Source: an archaeon
GTDB taxonomy: Archaea; Nanobdellota; Nanobdellia; Pacearchaeales; GW2011-AR1
Assembly (NCBI GenBank): GCA_038121585.1
Contig: JAYONY010000001.1
Location: 201,903 to 265,902, forward strand
Direction of reading: 5' to 3'
Length of the DNA: 64,000 nucleotides
Shown: in pieces, positions 1 through 21,467 of the stretch
Layout: each line of letters starts with the position of its first letter
Numbering within the stretch: position 1 is the first letter of the stretch
Notes under the pieces: generated by a model
The model's input: only the letters and a program-made list of their open reading frames with translations
What the model was told of the DNA's origin: nothing
Databases searched by the model: none
Translations under genes and position numbers: made by a program

Positions 1-1725
1 TGTTGCATTTACAACAGTTGTATTTTCTACAGTTACAAAATACGTTATGCTTGTTGCACTATAATTTTGATTACCGGTTGTGAATGCAGTGTAATTATAT
101 TCTCCGACTGGGAGTGTTTGATTAGTCCCGAGTTCTGTCAACACATTACTGCCGTTGCGCTCAACACTGAGTGTTCCGTGTGCGGTGCTTGCTGTTACGT
201 TTAGGGGGGTCCCAACTTCGAGCGTGAGGTTATCTGAAACCCCATTTAGGAGTAATGTTATATCATTTGATGCCTGTAATACTGTTAGGGTGAGATTATC
301 TTGCGCAAAGGTGTAGTTTTGCGTTGCGGTAACGTTCAAAACGATACTATAGTCCCCTGCTCCGAGTGTTACGTTCAAACCAACTTCTGACAGAATGCTC
401 TCATTTTTGCGAATAAGGCTAACTACGCCCTCTCCTGAATCACAACTTTCTGTGACATTTATTGCCGTTCCATATACTATAGTGGTACTTGGAAACACAT
501 TCAGCGTACACGTTGTCTCGTATTGCGTCACATTAAGATAGAAAGTAGTGCTTGCAGCTGTATAATTTTGATTTCCAGCATATGTTGCGGTTATATTGTA
601 GTAATCTACACCGCGAGTTAGGTTCAAACCGTTCTGTGAGGTGATGTCTACCCCATTTTGATAAAGCGTTATGCTTCCCTGCGCTGATTCAGCACTCAGA
701 TTTGTTGCTTGCGGATAACTAACATTTACATTGTCTGCATTGCCATTCAAGAGTAATGCAACAGTACCCTCAGCTTGCGTAATGGTATAACTTTGCATTG
801 CGGTAACATTAACGTTTCCGCTTGAATCATTAGCCCAAAAGTAATACGTGTACTCACCAACCCCTAAGTCTGAAATACTAAATGAGTATGTATCACTAAT
901 ATTTGATAATGAATAATTTACACCGTTAAATTCTATTCCTGTTTGCGAGAGTGCAACATCATCTGTTATTGTTACATTAAACTCATATGTTTGTCCTTGC
1001 ACATATTGTGTTGCATTACTTGGTTGTTGTGTTAGATTTGCAAATGTTGGAAAGGTTGTGTCCCCTCCACCTGCAAGTGCAGTTCCGGAAATTGTTATGT
1101 TATCAAGATTACATCCTTCAGTTCCTAAGTTTACATTACACAAAAATCGTATTGCAAAATTTTCATTGTCAGATGCAATAGAAGGCAATGTATTTGATTC
1201 AATAATGTAGAAATCTTGATCAGGTGTTCCTGTATAATCAAGCACTCGTGTCCATCCGGTACCATTATACCATTCAGCATAATAATAATCCCCAGTATCA
1301 AAATTGTTCGTATCAATACTCCACCAAAAACTAAAACTAATGTCTTCATAACCCGAAGTATTTACTCCCCGTTCAGCTATTGTTTCACTATCAGTATCTC
1401 GTGCAATTAAATGAAATGAATCGATAGGGCCTTCAATAGTTGAGATATTCCATCCAGACGTAAGACCATCAGTTATTGACCACCCAACAGCATCACCATC
1501 TTCAAAGTCTTCAAAGAGGATAACATCAGCAAACACACCTTGCATGAGGAAGAGTGCTATGAAGAATGAAAAGAAAAACATGAGAAACTTCTTTTTATGC
1601 TTGAGTAAGTCTTGCATGTAGAGTTCTATTTTTTTAGAAAGCATGATTGCGTTCGTATCGCAATAGTTTTTGAATTCATCATAGACTTTAGACTCTATGC
1701 TAAGCGTCACCTTCTTCTTTCCCAT
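1..1725 (-). CDS. Surface glycoprotein, partial (C-terminus lies beyond window start): RHH-like N-terminal module, TM/signal segment, MAM/LamG-like domain, repeated Ig-like domains
   Basis: Minus-strand frame is open from ATG 1725 to the window edge. It is absent from the ORF track because it has no stop. Hand translation: MGKKKVTLSIESKVYDEFKNYCDTNAIMLSKKIELYMQDLLKHKKKFLMFFFSFFIALFLMQGVFADVILFEDFEDGDAVGW... About 30 N-x-S/T sequons. TATA-like ATATTTAAAAAAG lies 25-35 nt upstream on the minus strand. Confidence 0.75.
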   Translation of the reverse strand, partial: MGKKKVTLSIESKVYDEFKNYCDTNAIMLSKKIELYMQDLLKHKKKFLMFFFSFFIALFLMQGVFADVILFEDFEDGDAVGWSITDGLTSGWNISTIEGPIDSFHLIARDTDSETIAERGVNTSGYEDISFSFWWSIDTNNFDTGDYYYAEWYNGTGWTRVLDYTGTPDQDFYIIESNTLPSIASDNENFAIRFLCNVNLGTEGCNLDNITISGTALAGGGDTTFPTFANLTQQPSNATQYVQGQTYEFNVTITDDVALSQTGIEFNGVNYSLSNISDTYSFSISDLGVGEYTYYFWANDSSGNVNVTAMQSYTITQAEGTVALLLNGNADNVNVSYPQATNLSAESAQGSITLYQNGVDITSQNGLNLTRGVDYYNITATYAGNQNYTAASTTFYLNVTQYETTCTLNVFPSTTIVYGTAINVTESCDSGEGVVSLIRKNESILSEVGLNVTLGAGDYSIVLNVTATQNYTFAQDNLTLTVLQASNDITLLLNGVSDNLTLEVGTPLNVTASTAHGTLSVERNGSNVLTELGTNQTLPVGEYNYTAFTTGNQNYSATSITYFVTVENTTVVNAT

Positions 1726-1825
1726 TACTCTGCACAACCATCCTTCTTTTTTAAATATTGCTTCTTACATATTAATATGTATATAGAAATACATAGAAGT
1801 ATACTCTATTGTCAAAAAAAATAGT

Positions 1826-2262: not shown

Positions 2263-3876
2263 TTACATACCAATAACACGGACGTTATCTACACTACACC
2301 ATTCACTTACTGCACCTGCAGTACATGAGAAGCGAATGCCCACGTTTGGATTATTATCTGCACTTGCAGGTAACGCATAACTTCGCAATACATAGCTACT
2401 ATCTGTGTGTGAACTAATATGTTCGAGTTCGTACCAACCACTGCCATCAGTCCATGATGCAATAAAGTCGTCTGCTGCATCAAGCCCGTTCACTTTACGA
2501 TAATACTCAAGTGTAATACCAGAGTATCCCGTAGTATCAACTGTTGTAGTAAGTACGCTTGCTGGGTCTGTTGTGTCTCGTGGTTTACAATACGCACTTG
2601 CTCCACCAAATGCAGGGTCTGTGGTGCTTGCAAGCCATGGGTCGCCACCGCCTGGTTGTGTTAATGTCCAAGCAGAAAGCCCAACTTCAAAATCATCAAA
2701 GAACAAGTCTGTTGGCCCAACAACTTCGTTAAATTCATCATTGTCAAATGCATCGTCACAGCCAGGGTCAGCTGCATCTACAAGTCCGTCACCGTCATTG
2801 TCGAGTCCATCAGAACAAGCGTATACTACCGGAGCACTACTTTCTGAATTGTCGTTAGCATCATCACAGTCTGGGTCTGCTAAGTCAACCAAACCATCAG
2901 AATCATTGTCTACACCGTCAGCACATTCTGGCACTGGTGGTGGAACATTGTATTCGTCATCATCAGCACTGTTCTCACACCCAGGGTCTGCTAAGTCTAC
3001 AAGCCCGTCACCGTCATTGTCTACTCCATCATCACAGCTGGCAGGTGCTGGGGGCTCGTATCCTGGCGGCATGCTAATTGGATTATTCATGGTCCAGTCA
3101 AGTGCTGTCCATAAGAATGGCCAGTCAGAACCGTCAGGCCCGTCACTGAGTTCTTCACCAAAGTTATTGTTATCACGACTGTCATCTTCTTCAATTTCAG
3201 GGTGGGGACCTACAAGGAGCAATCGTCCAGCACCGTATTCAACACCGATAATGCCTGGTGCCCCGTCAGCGACTGGGTTACCGGGAACGATCCACGTAGC
3301 AAAGGTTTCAACAGTTTGACCACCATACGGTACAAAGTATGGTTCTCCATAATACAGTACGTCTCGTTGCGCTGGTTCGTATTGGTTTGCTTCCAAATTA
3401 AGATTAATATCCATGGTAGTCATCGTGTAGTCTGGCCATGGTGCAATTTCAGGTATTGGACCGATACATTCACCATTAAACATGTCTGAAGGATAATCGA
3501 GATAGTCGCCTTCCCAAATAGTAACGTCACACGCATAGAATGCACCTGCACTCATACCAACGTATGCTCCACCACCAGAAACAAAGTCACGAATGTGTTG
3601 ATCACCCGATGCACGAATTCGTTGATTGTATGTTCCTGCCCATCCACCAGGCATGAACAATCCATCAAAGTGTCCGATGAGTTCTCCTCGGTTAATGTCT
3701 CGGTGATTCACTTCTTCCCAGGTTAAGCCTTTCCATTCTAAGAATGCTTTGAATGATGCAATACTTGGCTCCCATGAACCAGGCCCAGTATAAATTGCAA
3801 AGTCTGCATCCGCAGAAACAAGTGGTACAACAAATAGGGTTGCTATGATACTAAGTACAATCGCACTCTTTTTCAT
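2263..3876 (-). CDS. Secreted protein: GATase1-like (BPL_N-like) domain, three Cys-bracketed DNDGDG calcium-type repeats, C-terminal MAM/LamG-like domain
   Basis: 537 aa. Signal peptide MKKSAIVLSIIATLFVVPLVSADA. GGWAG..GGGAYVGMSAGAFYA..GPHPE motifs. Three repeats of C-x-DG-x-DNDGDGLVD-x-ADP-x-C. C-terminal FFDDFE...DNVRVIG domain. Confidence 0.7.
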   Translation of the reverse strand: MKKSAIVLSIIATLFVVPLVSADADFAIYTGPGSWEPSIASFKAFLEWKGLTWEEVNHRDINRGELIGHFDGLFMPGGWAGTYNQRIRASGDQHIRDFVSGGGAYVGMSAGAFYACDVTIWEGDYLDYPSDMFNGECIGPIPEIAPWPDYTMTTMDINLNLEANQYEPAQRDVLYYGEPYFVPYGGQTVETFATWIVPGNPVADGAPGIIGVEYGAGRLLLVGPHPEIEEDDSRDNNNFGEELSDGPDGSDWPFLWTALDWTMNNPISMPPGYEPPAPASCDDGVDNDGDGLVDLADPGCENSADDDEYNVPPPVPECADGVDNDSDGLVDLADPDCDDANDNSESSAPVVYACSDGLDNDGDGLVDAADPGCDDAFDNDEFNEVVGPTDLFFDDFEVGLSAWTLTQPGGGDPWLASTTDPAFGGASAYCKPRDTTDPASVLTTTVDTTGYSGITLEYYRKVNGLDAADDFIASWTDGSGWYELEHISSHTDSSYVLRSYALPASADNNPNVGIRFSCTAGAVSEWCSVDNVRVIGM

Positions 3877-17000: not shown

Positions 17001-19419
17001 CAGCATAACTAAAGGCTGATAAGTCCAAATTTCCAAGGTTATTGATAAACTCATTACCTCCAGCACCTCCATACGTGTTTATGAGTACGGTTCGATAGGC
17101 TGCTTTCGCATCTTCCACATTTACTCGAGTGTTTAGAAATTCATTAGTGGTGATTTCCCCGCTTGCTTCGACTGAGCTTATTCGATCATTAACTGCTTCA
17201 ATACATCCTTGCCGTGCGTTGACTTCATTTTCTATAGCGCCAGAGTTTGCATTCAAACAAGAAGTTACGGTGTTGTATTCTCCTTGATTAACGAGTTCTT
17301 GACATTGTTGACTCCATCCGTCAGTTCCTTGCATGGTTTGTTGTCGAGCAAGTGCTTCTCCACTGAGCCCTGCTAGCAAGTTTTTCAAAGTGAGAACACC
17401 CATAGTTGCAAAACAAGCTGCTTTGTATCCTGTTACAATGTTACCAAGATTTTCTTCAACGCTTTGCCATTGGTCGAGTGTTTCGTCTAAGTTAGCGATT
17501 CGTTCTGCTGCTCGTGCAGGGTTGAGTTGAATGTCTCGTTGTTCAATACCTATACCTACTGAAAATTCAACTTCTGTGCTGAGACTGCCTGATGAAGTTT
17601 CAATATGGAGTTTTGCGATTTCACTGAAATCAACGTCTCGTAAATGAAGTGCTGAGCCACAGAGTGTTGGAGGATTTGCCTGATTCGCAGTGAGTGTTCG
17701 TTCAGTTTTCGTCCCGTCAGCACACGTTGTTCGAACACTCACACGTGTTTCAGATACTATACGAGTAACCTCAAGGAGCCCATTAGTTGTTTGCTCACCG
17801 TCATCTTCTGCTACTTCTACGCGTAGTGCCCCCCAATCAAAAACTCCTTTCGACCGCTCTTCAGGTACGCTAATACTTGTTAATTGGAGTATCTGATACT
17901 CATTATCTAGAAAGACACTTTGAGCTGCATCTGCCAGATTTATCTTATTGAGCCGTGCTATTTCGAGTAAATAATGAGCGGTATCTGGATGAGTTGGGTA
18001 AAGCTCTGCATGAAGTTCCATGAGTTCTACTTGCGTGCTTTGTTTTGCGAGTATTTGTGCTAAGAGTATCGCATTCGCAAGCCCTTGTTGTCCGAACGGA
18101 TCATCTTCTGACGTTCTGCGCTCATTAGTGTAGTCTTCTGCCAAGTCAGTGTATTGTTGTTTGGTTAGTGAAAAGTAGGTCTCTACATTTTCTTCTTTAT
18201 TACTATAATCTGCTTCAAAGAGAGATTGTTGATTATTCACATATATTTCATTGAGAAGCACAGGCAGTTGTAAAGTTCCCTTTTCAATTACTGCCACATT
18301 ACCCGTTATGCCAAGGATTTCCCACCCGTCATCTTGCCCATTATCATCTGTCACGAGCGTGACAGTATCTCCGATTTCAAGTGGTGTAACTCCGAGTGTG
18401 AGTTCAAGTTGCTTAGCACCACATTGTACTTCTGCAGTCCCACCCCGAGTTCCTAGAGCGTTTATAGTTGTGACGCGACACTTATTATTCAAAAACCTGC
18501 TTCCTTCTGTGAGTTGGTATACGTCATCGTTAACACGAATTGTGGCGAGTTTATCTGCTCGTTGCAATCCATCGTATACTACACTCATCCTTCCTCTACA
18601 ATACTGTCCTGGAACATAAATAGGGGTTGAGAGTTGTCCTCGATTTACCGATCGTGTTGCGACAGGATTATTATTCTGATCAAAGATTGTCACGCTTGCC
18701 TGATTTGCATCTGCACTGTTTAGCTTGAGCGCGTAATCCCCTTGCCAAAAACTACTTTGGTATTTGTTGTTAAAGAAGTCATCTTCGTCCTGTACGCTAA
18801 GTAAAAATTCTGCCCGTCCAACACCAAAAGTGTTTGCTGCCTGATAGTCTATCTGGCCAGTGAGTGATAATTCTAAAACTTCAGGAGAGAGTGCTTCATT
18901 AGGTTGCCGCTTGAGTACGACTACTACATATCCGATATTGTCAATGTACGGGCTTCCGGTGAGTTGTGTTGTTGAGCGAATTGCTGCTCGTGCTGGTTGA
19001 AACCCAATACTCCGCACTTCTGGCGGGAGGTCTCCTGTGAATCGAATATTTTTTACTTGTTGAATGTCTATGAGTGGGTTAAGTTTGAGTCCGTCTACCT
19101 TACAAAATACTGGCACGTCTTGTTCTGCTAAGAGTGAGCTTGAAACTACTGCCGGTTCACACCCGAGCGGAGAAAGTTGTAAGAGAAGGTCTGTTCGTGC
19201 TTCACATTGGTCGGCATCACCAAGCGTTGGCCAATAGACTGATGCATCAGCACCATATACTGATGAGGCACTTGCAAATGACCCGGTACTCACGATGCGT
19301 GCGGTACCTGTCCGACTACCTGTTCCGTACCCAAAAGATGTTTGTGTTGTTGAGACTTGTGCATACACACTTCCTAGGAGCATGCACGCTAAGAGTGCTA
19401 CTACAAATAATCGTTTCAT
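14089..19419 (-). CDS. Giant secreted protein (1776 aa), unknown family
   Basis: Uninterrupted 5.3 kb ORF. Sec-type signal MKRLFVVALLACMLLGSVYAQ. ATG overlaps the upstream stop (ATGA at 19416-19419). Cys-rich segment around residues 1130-1260 (CQEFMSPGECQLLFNACDPVICPPSRCDF..). Confidence 0.8.
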   Translation of the reverse strand: MKRLFVVALLACMLLGSVYAQVSTTQTSFGYGTGSRTGTARIVSTGSFASASSVYGADASVYWPTLGDADQCEARTDLLLQLSPLGCEPAVVSSSLLAEQDVPVFCKVDGLKLNPLIDIQQVKNIRFTGDLPPEVRSIGFQPARAAIRSTTQLTGSPYIDNIGYVVVVLKRQPNEALSPEVLELSLTGQIDYQAANTFGVGRAEFLLSVQDEDDFFNNKYQSSFWQGDYALKLNSADANQASVTIFDQNNNPVATRSVNRGQLSTPIYVPGQYCRGRMSVVYDGLQRADKLATIRVNDDVYQLTEGSRFLNNKCRVTTINALGTRGGTAEVQCGAKQLELTLGVTPLEIGDTVTLVTDDNGQDDGWEILGITGNVAVIEKGTLQLPVLLNEIYVNNQQSLFEADYSNKEENVETYFSLTKQQYTDLAEDYTNERRTSEDDPFGQQGLANAILLAQILAKQSTQVELMELHAELYPTHPDTAHYLLEIARLNKINLADAAQSVFLDNEYQILQLTSISVPEERSKGVFDWGALRVEVAEDDGEQTTNGLLEVTRIVSETRVSVRTTCADGTKTERTLTANQANPPTLCGSALHLRDVDFSEIAKLHIETSSGSLSTEVEFSVGIGIEQRDIQLNPARAAERIANLDETLDQWQSVEENLGNIVTGYKAACFATMGVLTLKNLLAGLSGEALARQQTMQGTDGWSQQCQELVNQGEYNTVTSCLNANSGAIENEVNARQGCIEAVNDRISSVEASGEITTNEFLNTRVNVEDAKAAYRTVLINTYGGAGGNEFINNLGNLDLSAFSYADLRAMDMELCMQGQGSTYTARSQALFSEVQTKVEERQSIFEELEQARGASEGIGPLQVASIGATARNAMPAIGKVYAIGSSGQIANGDTIVYSGTNAPYSGSSDGIIFVSGRALGDGSVPESFAVLGTRADGVLQAQEIYYYERAENGDIVLTESFAPTGSQSQNVQEFINDFGISGFQDVPSDTYQYPIKASSREVKYFESAPYEGLPALVPFDFQRGYYVKVEPIIGVGSNIASYTEAGEPRSFKICNVGPNGLIGDEDPCQRVDVGISDNGQVFGLSATKSSQIIHDAKSALIEAAQQYGNEFISIFDEQLRRGTPANAVSKTACQEFMSPGECQLLFNACDPVICPPSRCDFGGNYQVADVVRTGIVGGALLCLPNINEGVYVPVCLSGIHAGIQGYTSILESHRACLQESIDTGQLTGICDEITSVNTCKLFWEPAISLAEIVVPRLFSGFSGARGGGEYATGSAVIQNVENSVDFFTQEYAVNAISAYNVRSIEEAGSPLCQGFISGSFPIGADFQALIEPDSPHQFHAYFSSSPFSDAIPPPTSRYKVFYHIFAGDDQGVNYQVYLKDPPQGGTFGINPTASVASGFIPRGEFATESRDLTLPSGYQQLCVSINGVEECGFEQVTTSFAIEQLRDAFVAEELTNADITSEQECISGPTLQPTNVPLTLNPQQAVEELVNPQVFEQGIVRICSNVNPGSATDPTRYVDVGYCGDDTVTCWLDKRSVDDALSSNQKITEGLKNQTLSELQAIQRSELDKRAAAVDPNIVYGQIDELRSDLYAIRTPETFSLADYEVILDTIQLRLGGVILQEHVAARNLLIGDVYAVITDRFHAKSLGAVAVTSESSSTSEDSSDNAPSEGNADGITGNGIEVSTSLAIFEDGEYTGYYIEQGPNEVTIEKDFSWYELGFWKFWSDDGTMAIIREEANWEIFPSNFIHPEEDGFIYFFAENYRFNADTRELTQAD

Positions 19420-21287
19420 GAGAAACTCACCTCCACAACTCCCCCTTCAAGTGCAGCATAGTTTTGTTGTAATTGTTCTAAACTGTTTGGCGTTGGGAGA
19501 CCTTCAACATCTAAAACAACAGTTCCTTGTGCAAGATCAGTTGCTAGTATAAAGGTTATTGTACTACCACCGCCTTTAAGCGCGTATTCAACGTCAGTTG
19601 CTGGAATTTCTACATTGAAACATTCTTCTTCTGTTGCCCCAAAGACTCCTGCTATCCCTCCTGCTGCGACATCAGTACAGTAGCGATGTTGTGTTGCTGG
19701 AATAGTTATTCCTGACGCTGCATACACAAATACTGAAACATCATATTCCCCTTCATGAAGCGTTACACTTTCTAGTTCAGGAAGTGATGCGGTAACAACG
19801 TTTCTACCATCATCAAAACTAATCACTGCCGAACCGCTTAAGGACTGCCCATCAACAAGGACGGATACATCAACAGGATATTCTTTGCGTAAAATAATAT
19901 CTACTTCTCCGGGTTCGTTAGATGAGTATTGGAGGGCGGTTTCCGCAAATCCTTCTGCTGATACGACGAGTTCACCATTAATACATTGTGGAATTCCTCC
20001 GGAGTATACTGCTTCGCTACCCACTAGCTCCGTTGACCCGAGCGTGCATCGACTATCAAAGCAGGAGTAGGTTACAAGTGCACCCTCCACGGGAGCGAGT
20101 TGCTGATCATACACTCGAGCAGTTAGTTCCCCATTATAAAACTGGCACGCATCTACTTCTGGATTATCGAGTAAGCTTTGAATTTCAGCCTCTCGAGGAA
20201 CATTATTGTCAAGTATAACTGCGAGAGGGAACTGGAAGATTTCAGTCCCGCGAGTTACTTGGACCATAACAGGGAATCGTACATCCCACACAAAGTGATA
20301 CGGTACATAACAAAAGCCCATGATACCCATGCCTGATTGTGTCCCTACAGGGTCTGCTATCATTATTTCATTCGTTGCAGGCGTTACTTCAGTAATGCTT
20401 GGCCACCTTGGAGAGTAGAGCACTTGCACACTCGCATCTGTTAGCGTGTACCCAAGATCCACTATGAAATAATCGTCTTCTACATCATCAAGAATATACG
20501 CATTACCAGCTATTTTTATTGCTCCAAAGTTTGTTGCGAGTGCTTCATGCAGTTTAGTCACTTCATCTCGTGTTTGCCATATTTCAGGACTACACGATAC
20601 GGAAACACCATCAACAGGTACATGATTGCGCAGAGTATCAACAGCATACGATTCTAAAAATGCAGTTTCAAGTTCTTCTTCATGAATATCCCGTGCTATT
20701 TCATAGAGTGCACCTAGAGAACTTTCAACTGTTACTTCATGCCGTGTTTTGCGAGCGCTTCGCCCTTCTCGTTGAGTTACGAGTGCTCCGTTAACGACTA
20801 TATCAACTGCTTCATCATGTATTGCTGCACTGACTGATGGGCTAGCAGGTAATGAAATATAGAAGTCATTAAAGTAAAACGGGGTAAACTCACATTCTTG
20901 GATTCGTTGCGCTACGTACTCTTCTAAATGTTGTTCCATTTCGCTTTTTGTAGGCGCTTGTTCTACAAAGAAATTATTTCCTGTAACATATGACCAATAC
21001 GGTACTGGCGTCCCCATAAAGTTGAGGTGCGAGGAGAACGGGGCAAATTCACTACCTGGTACGTAGTCGCCCAATTCTATGCGTCCTCCTTGCACTCCCA
21101 TCACCTCTATTCCCTCTTCTGTTGCTGTTTGTATACAGCCTAAATATGATGTGTAAATTGGTGCAAATTCAGGGTCTATTGTTGTCTCAAAGAGCGATTC
21201 ACGAAACGCGTAGACGACTAGAATACTTCCTACAATTACGAGTGCGAGGATAATAAATCCTGTAGCAAGCCCTCGTTTAGCTACCAC
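19416..21287 (-). CDS. Membrane-anchored/secreted 623 aa protein, unknown family
   Basis: GTG start at 21287. N-terminus (M)VAKRGLATGFIILALVIVGSILVVYAF is class III signal-like. Translationally coupled to the giant gene. Confidence 0.75.
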   Translation of the reverse strand: MVAKRGLATGFIILALVIVGSILVVYAFRESLFETTIDPEFAPIYTSYLGCIQTATEEGIEVMGVQGGRIELGDYVPGSEFAPFSSHLNFMGTPVPYWSYVTGNNFFVEQAPTKSEMEQHLEEYVAQRIQECEFTPFYFNDFYISLPASPSVSAAIHDEAVDIVVNGALVTQREGRSARKTRHEVTVESSLGALYEIARDIHEEELETAFLESYAVDTLRNHVPVDGVSVSCSPEIWQTRDEVTKLHEALATNFGAIKIAGNAYILDDVEDDYFIVDLGYTLTDASVQVLYSPRWPSITEVTPATNEIMIADPVGTQSGMGIMGFCYVPYHFVWDVRFPVMVQVTRGTEIFQFPLAVILDNNVPREAEIQSLLDNPEVDACQFYNGELTARVYDQQLAPVEGALVTYSCFDSRCTLGSTELVGSEAVYSGGIPQCINGELVVSAEGFAETALQYSSNEPGEVDIILRKEYPVDVSVLVDGQSLSGSAVISFDDGRNVVTASLPELESVTLHEGEYDVSVFVYAASGITIPATQHRYCTDVAAGGIAGVFGATEEECFNVEIPATDVEYALKGGGSTITFILATDLAQGTVVLDVEGLPTPNSLEQLQQNYAALEGGVVEVSFS

Positions 21288-21417
21288 GTTTCTTTGACCC
21301 CTTTTTGATTTTTTCTTGGATTAATTTGATAAGTTCCGTATTGATATCCTTGTCAATTACTTGTTTAAACTGTTCCCACATGGCTTCGTCTTCGATTAAT
21401 AGTAAGTACTTCTTCAT
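21277..21417 (-). CDS. Small ribbon-helix-helix-like protein (46 aa), first gene of the giant-protein operon
   Basis: Not in the track (<60 aa). MKKYLLLIEDEAMWEQFKQVIDKDINTELIKLIQEKIKKGSKKRGS has a beta-alpha-alpha pattern. The stop overlaps the GTG start of the next gene by 11 nt. Confidence 0.5.
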   Translation of the reverse strand: MKKYLLLIEDEAMWEQFKQVIDKDINTELIKLIQEKIKKGSKKRGS

Positions 21418-21467
21418 GAATGCCCCAATTCCTTGCATCTCTTACGCATGTTCCCTATTTAAAGTTT

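Follow-up and report, generated by a model that had tools for sequence, protein, structure and literature searches.

A minus-strand gene in a 64,000-nucleotide (nt) stretch of DNA from a Pacearchaeales archaeon (GenBank assembly GCA_038121585.1, contig JAYONY010000001.1, positions 201,903 to 265,902; hereafter the window) encodes a 46-residue module that resembles domains of the ribbon-helix-helix (RHH) class, which bind DNA, and is joined in frame to the hydrophobic N-terminal segment of a giant surface glycoprotein. The fusion is real and evolutionarily conserved; far from being an isolated oddity, it is a recurring union, in frame, of two genes that form a widespread pair. We consider it fairly probable that the gene specifies an autoregulatory RHH protein that shares one chain with the Sec signal peptide of the protein it regulates. 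The open reading frame (ORF) starts at ATG 1725 and exits the left edge of the window, and its translation reproduces exactly the product sequence quoted in a preliminary description of this DNA. In the genome (974 kb in 5 contigs, ~40% G+C, 82% complete), whose relatives are labelled Pace-, Woese- or Nanoarchaeota, the complete gene occupies C1:199764-203627 and comprises 1287 codons. The encoded chain opens with the RHH-like module (residues 1-46, MGKKKVTLSIESKVYDEFKNYCDTNAIMLSKKIELYMQDLLKHKKK; 1588-1725, minus strand), which has 14 invariant positions and sub-threshold matches to DUF6364, CcdA and YbfE. It continues with a 20-residue hydrophobic segment that ends in VFA↓D and reads as the h-region and c-region of a Sec-type signal peptide (residues 47-66, FLMFFFSFFIALFLMQGVFA; 1528-1587, minus strand). 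From Asp67 onward, the protein as encoded in the whole genome has a large ectodomain rich in sequons. A poly-Gly linker and a conserved C-terminal module follow, and then a transmembrane (TM) helix that forms a C-terminal membrane anchor, and a basic tail. The part of the mature ectodomain inside the window (1-1527, minus strand) begins with a MAM/LamG-like domain followed by sequon-rich Ig-like repeats and goes on past the window to C1:199764; the Pfam matches of the ectodomain (DUF4625, Ig_SibA) are weak.

Homologue searches with residues 1-220 as the query retrieved 19 long homologues of 793-1891 amino acids (aa), all but one of which open with the module and then the hydrophobic segment, with 46-62% identity over the two. 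The long homologues share their N- and C-terminal parts; eight have only the module and segment in common with the window protein (47-76% identity), their ectodomains being of different kinds, for example DNRLRE, LamG or BNR/sortilin-like. A profile search of 1.84 billion representative proteins returned 306 relatives at E<=1e-3, most of them free proteins of about 44-80 aa that consist of the module alone, together with about a dozen proteins of 1000-1465 aa that carry it at their N terminus and one (P0118) that carries a ~100-residue N-terminal domain. A few relatives (P0021, P0022, P0090 and P0112) are tandem duplications, which fits a domain that works as a dimer. Tandem copies, seen at five loci as well (L014, L042, L050, L058 and L064), take the form of one ~100-aa chain or of two adjacent or overlapping small ORFs.

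Species-representative genomes yielded 69 module loci, all from DPANN metagenome-assembled or single-amplified genomes. With its invariant positions, its 306 relatives and these 69 loci, the module lies far outside what chance would produce. At 13 of these the module is fused to a hydrophobic segment within an ORF of 546-1876 aa (two of the ORFs run off their contigs); at the remaining loci it is free, in five cases with an N-terminal extension. A same-strand ORF starts within 400 nt downstream of 54 free copies and overlaps the module gene in 37 of them, 16 times by ATGA. These downstream ORFs have a signal-peptide-like N terminus in 41 of 54 cases and reach at least 400 aa in 35 of 54, some approaching 2000 aa, and the ectodomain classes of the fused genes recur among their products. 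Because the pair of free gene and surface-protein gene is widespread and both forms draw on common ectodomain classes, the window gene represents an in-frame merger of such a coupled pair. In-frame stop read-through found no general support as the origin of stop-containing matches: the reading frame shifts at most junctions, through ATGA or longer overlaps, and is kept at only 4 of 54. Of 151 genomes from the order to which the window belongs, 48 carry the module; about nine have the fused form, these being genomes with no second close copy, so the fused copy must do whatever the free copy does. Sequence and profile searches of the present genome likewise found no other close copy of the module. 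Two other free RHH-type ORFs were noted, both on the minus strand: a distant relative of the module (C2:292415-292615; 21.6 bits) just downstream of an EF-2-like gene, and an ORF resembling FitA/CopG antitoxins (C2:139045-139251) that adjoins an integrase-like ORF and probably lies on a mobile element.

The preliminary description had also connected the module with a separate 46-aa ORF at 21277-21417 and concluded that one module heads two unrelated surface-protein loci. This kinship did not survive comparison: phmmer and the family hidden Markov model (HMM) gave no link even at E<=50-100, and profile-profile alignment with hhalign returned a probability of 0.15% and E=0.39. What the two loci have in common is gene order only, namely a tiny ORF that overlaps the start of a large membrane- or surface-protein gene. 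In the region 19416-21438 (minus strand), the ORF starting at ATG 21417 (MKKYLLLIEDE...) belongs to a conserved family of 44-46 aa, with 67-71% identity in four metagenome proteins, has no Pfam match, and overlaps by 11 nt the GTG start of a 623-aa membrane protein.

One relative has another small gene in this slot. P0012, a homologue of the ectodomain, lacks the RHH-like part, and where the window protein has its hydrophobic segment P0012 has an ordinary signal peptide. Its locus is syntenic with the window: its neighbour with BPL_N and MAM domains (L070:1141-2706) matches the corresponding window gene (2263-3876) at E=1e-77, and a 69-aa winged-helix gene (weak HTH_11 match; L070:2795-3004) overlaps the start of the surface-protein gene by ATGA. 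Judging from these sequences, different small DNA-binding proteins seem interchangeable in the slot ahead of the surface-protein gene.

We next consider the start of translation, on which the fusion depends for its module. A TATA box, TTTAAAAAA (1747-1755, minus strand), begins at -30 from ATG 1725, in agreement with the element that the preliminary description had placed 25-35 nt upstream, and this distance is typical of the genome. Upstream of 425 long ORFs of this genome, TATA-like hexamers peak sharply at -30 to -27 from the ATG; about half of these ORFs have a hexamer that begins exactly 27-30 nt ahead of the ATG, and Shine-Dalgarno-like motifs give a weak signal genome-wide. Transcription in this organism is predominantly leaderless. 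As the peak at -30 to -27 is the pattern expected for leaderless genes, ATG 1725 has the standard promoter geometry of the genome. Reading the sequence by eye, we saw no TATA-like hexamer at a matching distance before the internal methionines Met37 (1617) or Met49 (1581), and the homologues open with M[GSK]KKKVTLS. On account of the TATA box at -30, its absence before Met37 and Met49 and the homologous N termini, the ATG at 1723-1725 (minus strand) is the best-supported start, and the mRNA is probably leaderless. Oligo-T runs function as archaeal terminators, and a T8 run (1814-1821, minus strand) shortly after the stop of the upstream gene (1826-2230) is likely to be one, in which case the fused gene would form its own transcription unit.

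That the fusion lacks functional meaning, having arisen by a recent and near-neutral loss of the junction between stop and start or reflecting a start at an internal Met, with an RHH part that is inactive, decaying or never made, appears most unlikely to us. The free pair is the commoner state, and its junctions, overlapping by 1-4 nt, could be merged by a single indel; yet the fused form occurs in 13 species genomes, its ectodomains are of four types or more, and the fused genomes contain no other close copy. Fused modules retain all invariant residues and score 70-93 bits, matching the free copies. Met37 followed by QDLLKHKKK and the h-region would by itself make a good signal peptide, but the TATA box is placed for ATG 1725 and we saw none for the internal methionines, and Met37 is a conserved core position of helix B in free copies too.

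To characterize the module itself, we compared its residue pattern, family matches and predicted structures with those of RHH proteins. The proposed layout comprises a beta-strand (K5-I10), helix A (about residues 12-24), a loop (NAIML) and helix B, which starts from the invariant S30. An N-terminal strand with alternating residues, a first helix, a short loop and a second helix capped by Ser, Thr or Asn is the textbook signature of the RHH fold, and the module conforms to it. Fourteen positions are invariant in the 19 fused homologues (K5, V6, T7, L8, S9, Y15, F18, C22, A26, I27, M28, L29, S30 and E34), position 10 is only I or V, and K31 is nearly invariant. All 19 fused members match Pfam DUF6364 (best E=5e-5) and some also match RelB or RepB-RCR_reg. 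Against DUF6364, the 46 residues alone score 24.1 bits (E=5e-5) and the longer protein 17.1-19.5 bits, below the gathering threshold of 27.3 bits, so that the module is not demonstrably a member of any curated family. Other matches of the module alone are weak, with E=0.05 for CcdA and E=0.008 for the NCBIfam YbfE/LexA-regulated protein family, the values for CcdA, RelB, RepB-RCR_reg and YbfE ranging from 0.005 to 0.05. Searching PDB sequences with the module profile gave weak matches only, to SvtR of SIRV1 (2kel; E=0.13), E73 of SSV-RH (4aai; E=0.28) and DinJ (9lew; E=0.84); these three RHH proteins are nevertheless within the top ten and align in the proper register, SvtR being the best small-protein match. 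When the hydrophobic part was included, the PDB profile search returned a chance match only.

Several observations weigh against the RHH assignment. Every RHH family model scores the module under its curated threshold. An AlphaFold2 monomer model of residues 1-74 (predicted local distance difference test score, pLDDT, 77) has an extended N terminus, one continuous helix over residues 12-42 and a TM helix; it merges both helices of the module and contains no helix-turn-helix. The model of a natural tandem-repeat relative does separate them, with a helix at 14-26, a loop and a helix at 33-48 in each repeat, but its pLDDT is only 50 and it lacks the strand. RHH proteins are obligate intertwined dimers, and both predictions were of single chains. 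Taken together, the consistent weak matches, the residue pattern and the tandem repeats make it probable but not proven that residues 1-46 form an RHH domain, and the module is best read as a DPANN-specific family distantly related to DUF6364. The preliminary assignment of the first 45 residues to this class thereby stands as a resemblance, seen against DUF6364 in 19 of 19 homologues, RelB, CcdA and RHH structures in the PDB, at scores that all remain sub-threshold. An interpretation as the antitoxin of a toxin-antitoxin pair was rejected, as no toxin gene is adjacent; the ORF downstream of the free module codes for a signal-peptide protein at 41 of 54 loci, and in the window the module is itself fused to such a protein.

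Inspection by eye of the 110 nt upstream of module genes first drew attention to recurring TAyTTCT(A/T)T boxes, often palindromic (for example, TATACTTCTATAGAAGTATA), that lie just upstream of or over the TATA box. We then scored the strict pattern TAyTTCyWT on either strand in 57 module promoters and in 61 control TATA promoters of the same loci, the two sets having a similar A+T content (0.77 versus 0.74). At least one box was present in 44 of 57 module promoters versus 4 of 61 controls, and at least two in 30 of 57 versus 1 of 61. The boxes are spaced by 10, 20 or 30 bp on the same strand and by 9, 19 or 29 bp when convergent, which corresponds to one helical turn, and a phased pair occurs in 32 of 57 module promoters versus 2 of 61 controls (Fisher p=4e-11). 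When the data were split at random 20 times, the best k-mer learned on one half was in 19 cases a piece of the box that was also enriched in the half held out. Boxes are kept in 9 of 13 fused-gene promoters; none matched TAyTTCyWT in the six promoters of N-terminally extended module genes.

In the whole 974-kb genome, the strict motif forms only two clusters, one of which is the promoter of the fused gene. Here two direct operator-like boxes, TATACTTCTA (1803-1794) and TGTATTTCTA (1793-1784), are set 10 bp apart on the minus strand (1784-1803). Between them and the TATA box (1755-1747), also on the minus strand, come three more elements: a third box in degenerate form, TATACATATT (1783-1774); a palindrome of 14 bp that is perfect, ACATATTAATATGT (1780-1767); and a box in inverted orientation, ATATGTAAGAAG (1772-1761), that fits the convergent spacing of 9, 19 or 29 bp. 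Phased repeats beside the core promoter are the classical layout of operators for RHH repressors. We infer that the 10-bp-phased boxes are a candidate operator to which the RHH module would bind; a conserved operator would explain the invariance of the strand residues K-V-T-L-S across distant lineages. The idea of DNA binding put forward in the preliminary description has thus acquired a conserved, helically phased array at these promoters, this one included, and binding itself is suggested by the sequence pattern. Three points tell in the other direction: the motif was found and tested on overlapping data, although the held-out splits and the controls speak for it; 4 of the 13 fused promoters contain no strict match; and another factor, rather than this protein, may be what binds the boxes.

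The box array also bears on whether the module is a transcription factor in the first place. It might instead be a cytoplasmic helper in the export or biogenesis of very large surface proteins, whether by extending the signal-peptide region, as a dedicated factor for targeting or holding, or as a handle for dimerisation, and its RHH likeness would then reflect only a small beta-alpha-alpha shape. We rate this reading as very unlikely. Such a helper would account for the fact that the module always adjoins or is fused to secreted-protein genes and is translationally coupled to them, and a conserved protein partner would suit its unusually high conservation across distant DPANN lineages; the sub-threshold RHH matches and the predicted structures, which gave no RHH fold, are also in keeping with it. 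However, every database likeness is to DNA-binding RHH families in the right register, tandem repeats exist, and in P0118 the module is fused to a domain with a nuclease-like motif (recognized by eye) and no membrane segment. The conserved 10-bp-phased box array is specific to these promoters and would also explain the invariant residues of the strand.

Having weighed the module as a probable regulator, we turn to the segment that joins it to the ectodomain. The segment reads KHKKK (n-region), FLMFFFSFFIALFLM and QGVFA↓D, with the predicted cut after Ala66, between bases 1528 and 1527. The sequence has the features of a Sec signal peptide, with positive charge in the n-region, a hydrophobic stretch as the h-region and, at -3 and -1, small residues. 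Ala at -1 (Ala66) is conserved in at least 90% of the 19 homologues, the residue at -3 is small or neutral, and the unfused partner proteins carry equivalent signal peptides at the position of the fused segment. Because the small-x-Ala motif is conserved, the position is that of plain signal peptides and the protein has its own C-terminal anchor, cleavage after Ala66 appears more likely than a permanent N-terminal anchor. The genome encodes two ORFs resembling archaeal signal peptidase I (50.5 and 41.5 bits, both under the cut-off of 51.85) and one presenilin/signal peptide peptidase (SPP)-family ORF (PF06550) above its cut-off; an SppA-type signal peptide peptidase was not found in the genome, the completeness of which is 82%. 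N-in stubs like this one are cut by SPP-type enzymes, and the RHH part could therefore be released from the membrane, although as a step in this organism such release is pure conjecture.

The competing topology is that of an uncleaved, permanently tethered regulator. With the segment serving as a type II signal-anchor, both ends of the glycoprotein would be fixed, and the RHH domain would act from the membrane in the manner of ToxR or CadC. Such a protein might sense the state of its ectodomain or might tether its own gene to the membrane and thereby aid co-translational export. The lysine-rich flank, the N-in orientation and some 20 hydrophobic residues able to span the membrane all fit this topology, membrane-bound factors could readily reach DNA in the tiny cells of DPANN archaea, and the operator boxes are retained in fused genes. 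We nonetheless consider it unlikely, given the Ala at -1 and the small residue at -3 conserved in at least 90% of fused homologues, the ordinary N-terminal signal peptides that occupy the equivalent place in P0012 and in unfused partners, and the C-terminal TM anchor that the protein already possesses. Of the coupling between RHH domain and membrane anchor proposed in the preliminary description, the conserved in-frame fusion is therefore retained, and the permanent anchor appears less likely than a cleaved stub composed of the RHH domain and the signal peptide.

Under the favoured model of an autoregulatory RHH protein fused to the signal peptide of its target, the usual state in most Woese-, Pace- and Nanoarchaeota is a free RHH protein of 45-65 aa, encoded by the first gene of an operon, coupled through overlapping stop and start to a secreted- or surface-protein gene and most likely autoregulating that operon. 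RHH dimers would bind the TAyTTCT boxes cooperatively on a 10-bp grid, upstream of and overlapping the region of the transcription factor B recognition element (BRE) and TATA box. Here, and in 13 of the 69 species genomes with the module, the gene for the regulator has become joined, in frame, to the signal peptide of the protein that it would control. The leaderless mRNA from ATG 1725 would then yield a single chain of RHH domain, KHKKK, h-region, VFA↓D, ectodomain and C-terminal anchor. The hydrophobic segment would steer this chain to the Sec translocon while the RHH domain stays in the cytoplasm (N-in), signal peptidase would cut after Ala66, and the glycoprotein would then be held by its own C-terminal TM helix. 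A 66-residue stub of RHH domain and signal peptide would remain in the membrane, from which a presenilin/SPP-type protease may free it. The stubs would pair as RHH dimers and repress the promoter, so that repressor is made one-for-one with the exported product. One consideration counts against an adaptive role: a membrane-held repressor may be poorer than a free one, and the fusion may be nearly neutral for that reason.

A more far-reaching version, in which the signal peptide itself serves as a transcription factor because each export event releases a stub, a protease frees its RHH domain and the domain returns to the operator, strikes us as doubtful. If it held, transcription of a giant surface-protein gene would be throttled by the number of molecules actually exported, and no signal peptide of a prokaryote would have been shown before to double as a gene regulator. 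A pairing of regulator and operator that extends across DPANN archaea would come to light as well, serving surface proteins with a plausible part in host contact.

Among known systems, the module can be compared with small autorepressors. Like CopG of pMV158, Arc, MetJ and SvtR, it is a unit of ~45 residues with a beta-alpha-alpha pattern, encoded by the first gene of an operon that it presumably controls, and its boxes resemble the repeated operator boxes of CopG-type proteins and SvtR in being phased by one helical turn beside the core promoter. SvtR, an archaeal-virus repressor from SIRV1, also controls the gene for a large structural protein. The sequence similarity is below significance here, binding is predicted from the boxes, and the domain is fused to the signal peptide of an exported target. 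DUF6364 and the antitoxins RelB, CcdA and DinJ provide the best-scoring profiles over the strand and both helices, but at scores under the curated cut-offs, and the partner here is a secreted-protein gene with no adjacent toxin.

A regulator fused to its own target has a bacterial counterpart in trifunctional PutA of E. coli and Salmonella, in which an N-terminal RHH domain is fused to the enzyme that it autoregulates (PMC5293562). In a likeness to what is proposed for the window protein, an RHH domain of ~47 residues stands at the N terminus of a product of >1000 residues whose own gene it represses, and activity switches between DNA and membrane. PutA differs in being a bacterial, cytoplasmic, peripheral-membrane flavoenzyme that has no signal peptide and is not cleaved, and the rest of it is non-homologous to the archaeal protein. 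For a signal peptide with a second function, the closest parallel is the 98-residue signal peptide of Rem/Env of mouse mammary tumour virus (MMTV), which acts as a regulator after signal-peptidase cleavage (PMC8725593). As predicted for the archaeal protein, it has a long extension before the h-region whose independent function relates to nucleic acids and which signal peptidase generates as a by-product of export. The MMTV peptide, however, belongs to a eukaryotic viral system, binds RNA and is extracted from the endoplasmic reticulum membrane, whereas cleavage and release in the archaeal case are predicted. We know of no prokaryotic example of a functional long signal peptide of the MMTV type. 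ToxR and CadC are built on a comparable plan, with a DNA-binding domain at the cytoplasmic N terminus, one hydrophobic span and a large portion outside the cytoplasm; in contrast to the giant structural glycoprotein with its cleavable-looking span, they have a winged-helix domain of the OmpR type, an uncleaved anchor and a sensor outside. A Pfam-type family search gave no winged-helix match for the module, which sets it apart from the ToxR/CadC class. In the literature on RHH proteins and DPANN surface proteins, DUF6364, membrane-anchored RHH proteins and DNA-binding long signal peptides, we found no published fusion of an RHH domain and a signal peptide, no DPANN regulator and operator pair of this kind and no functional long signal peptide in prokaryotes.

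DPANN archaea depend on contact with host cells, and giant surface proteins are obvious candidates for mediating it. The locus points to a system that is compact and extends across Woese-, Pace- and Nanoarchaeota, and that would consist of a highly conserved 46-residue regulator, TAyTTCT boxes on a 10-bp grid and target genes for giant secreted proteins. Its fused form is an apparently undescribed architecture with a putative DNA-binding domain ahead of a cleavable-looking Sec signal peptide which, if processed as predicted, would tie the supply of repressor to both synthesis and export of the product. For annotation, the finding implies that N-terminal extensions of this kind could be cut off in the belief that the start is wrong, and that free genes of 45-65 aa could be missed.

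Further features of the locus and the family were noted in passing. A scan for sigma-70 promoters and terminators, a bacterial model that has no bearing on an archaeon, picked out nothing but a stem of 6 bp and its 7-nt loop (ATTGCG ATACGAA CGCAAT) inside the coding region, at 1646-1664 over the RHH codons Y21-I27; it was flagged on both strands and is probably a chance occurrence. The neighbouring gene at 2263-3876 encodes a secreted BPL_N-domain protein with Cys-bracketed DNDGDG repeats and a C-terminal MAM/LamG-like domain, which resembles the first ectodomain domain of the fused protein. At their C termini, all giant homologues (P0002-P0020) have a common tail whatever their ectodomain, composed of a poly-Gly/Ser linker, a ~250-residue module with FLN.C and TGLA(I/V)S motifs, a TM helix and a basic tail; in the window protein it lies outside the window, at C1:199764-200700. 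This tail matches no Pfam family, and it may serve as a domain for anchoring or sorting that is specific to the lineage. An extra domain of ~95-105 residues precedes the RHH-like module at six loci (L005, L022, L046, L052, L060 and L066) and in four proteins (P0016, P0019, P0020 and P0118), both in free proteins of ~150 aa and ahead of the RHH module, signal peptide and giant protein. It has no Pfam match, and its motif CPDF..(K)EVGVELE recalls, by eye, PD-(D/E)xK nucleases. In at least five loci, a winged-helix-like ORF of ~75-90 aa overlaps the start of these extended genes.

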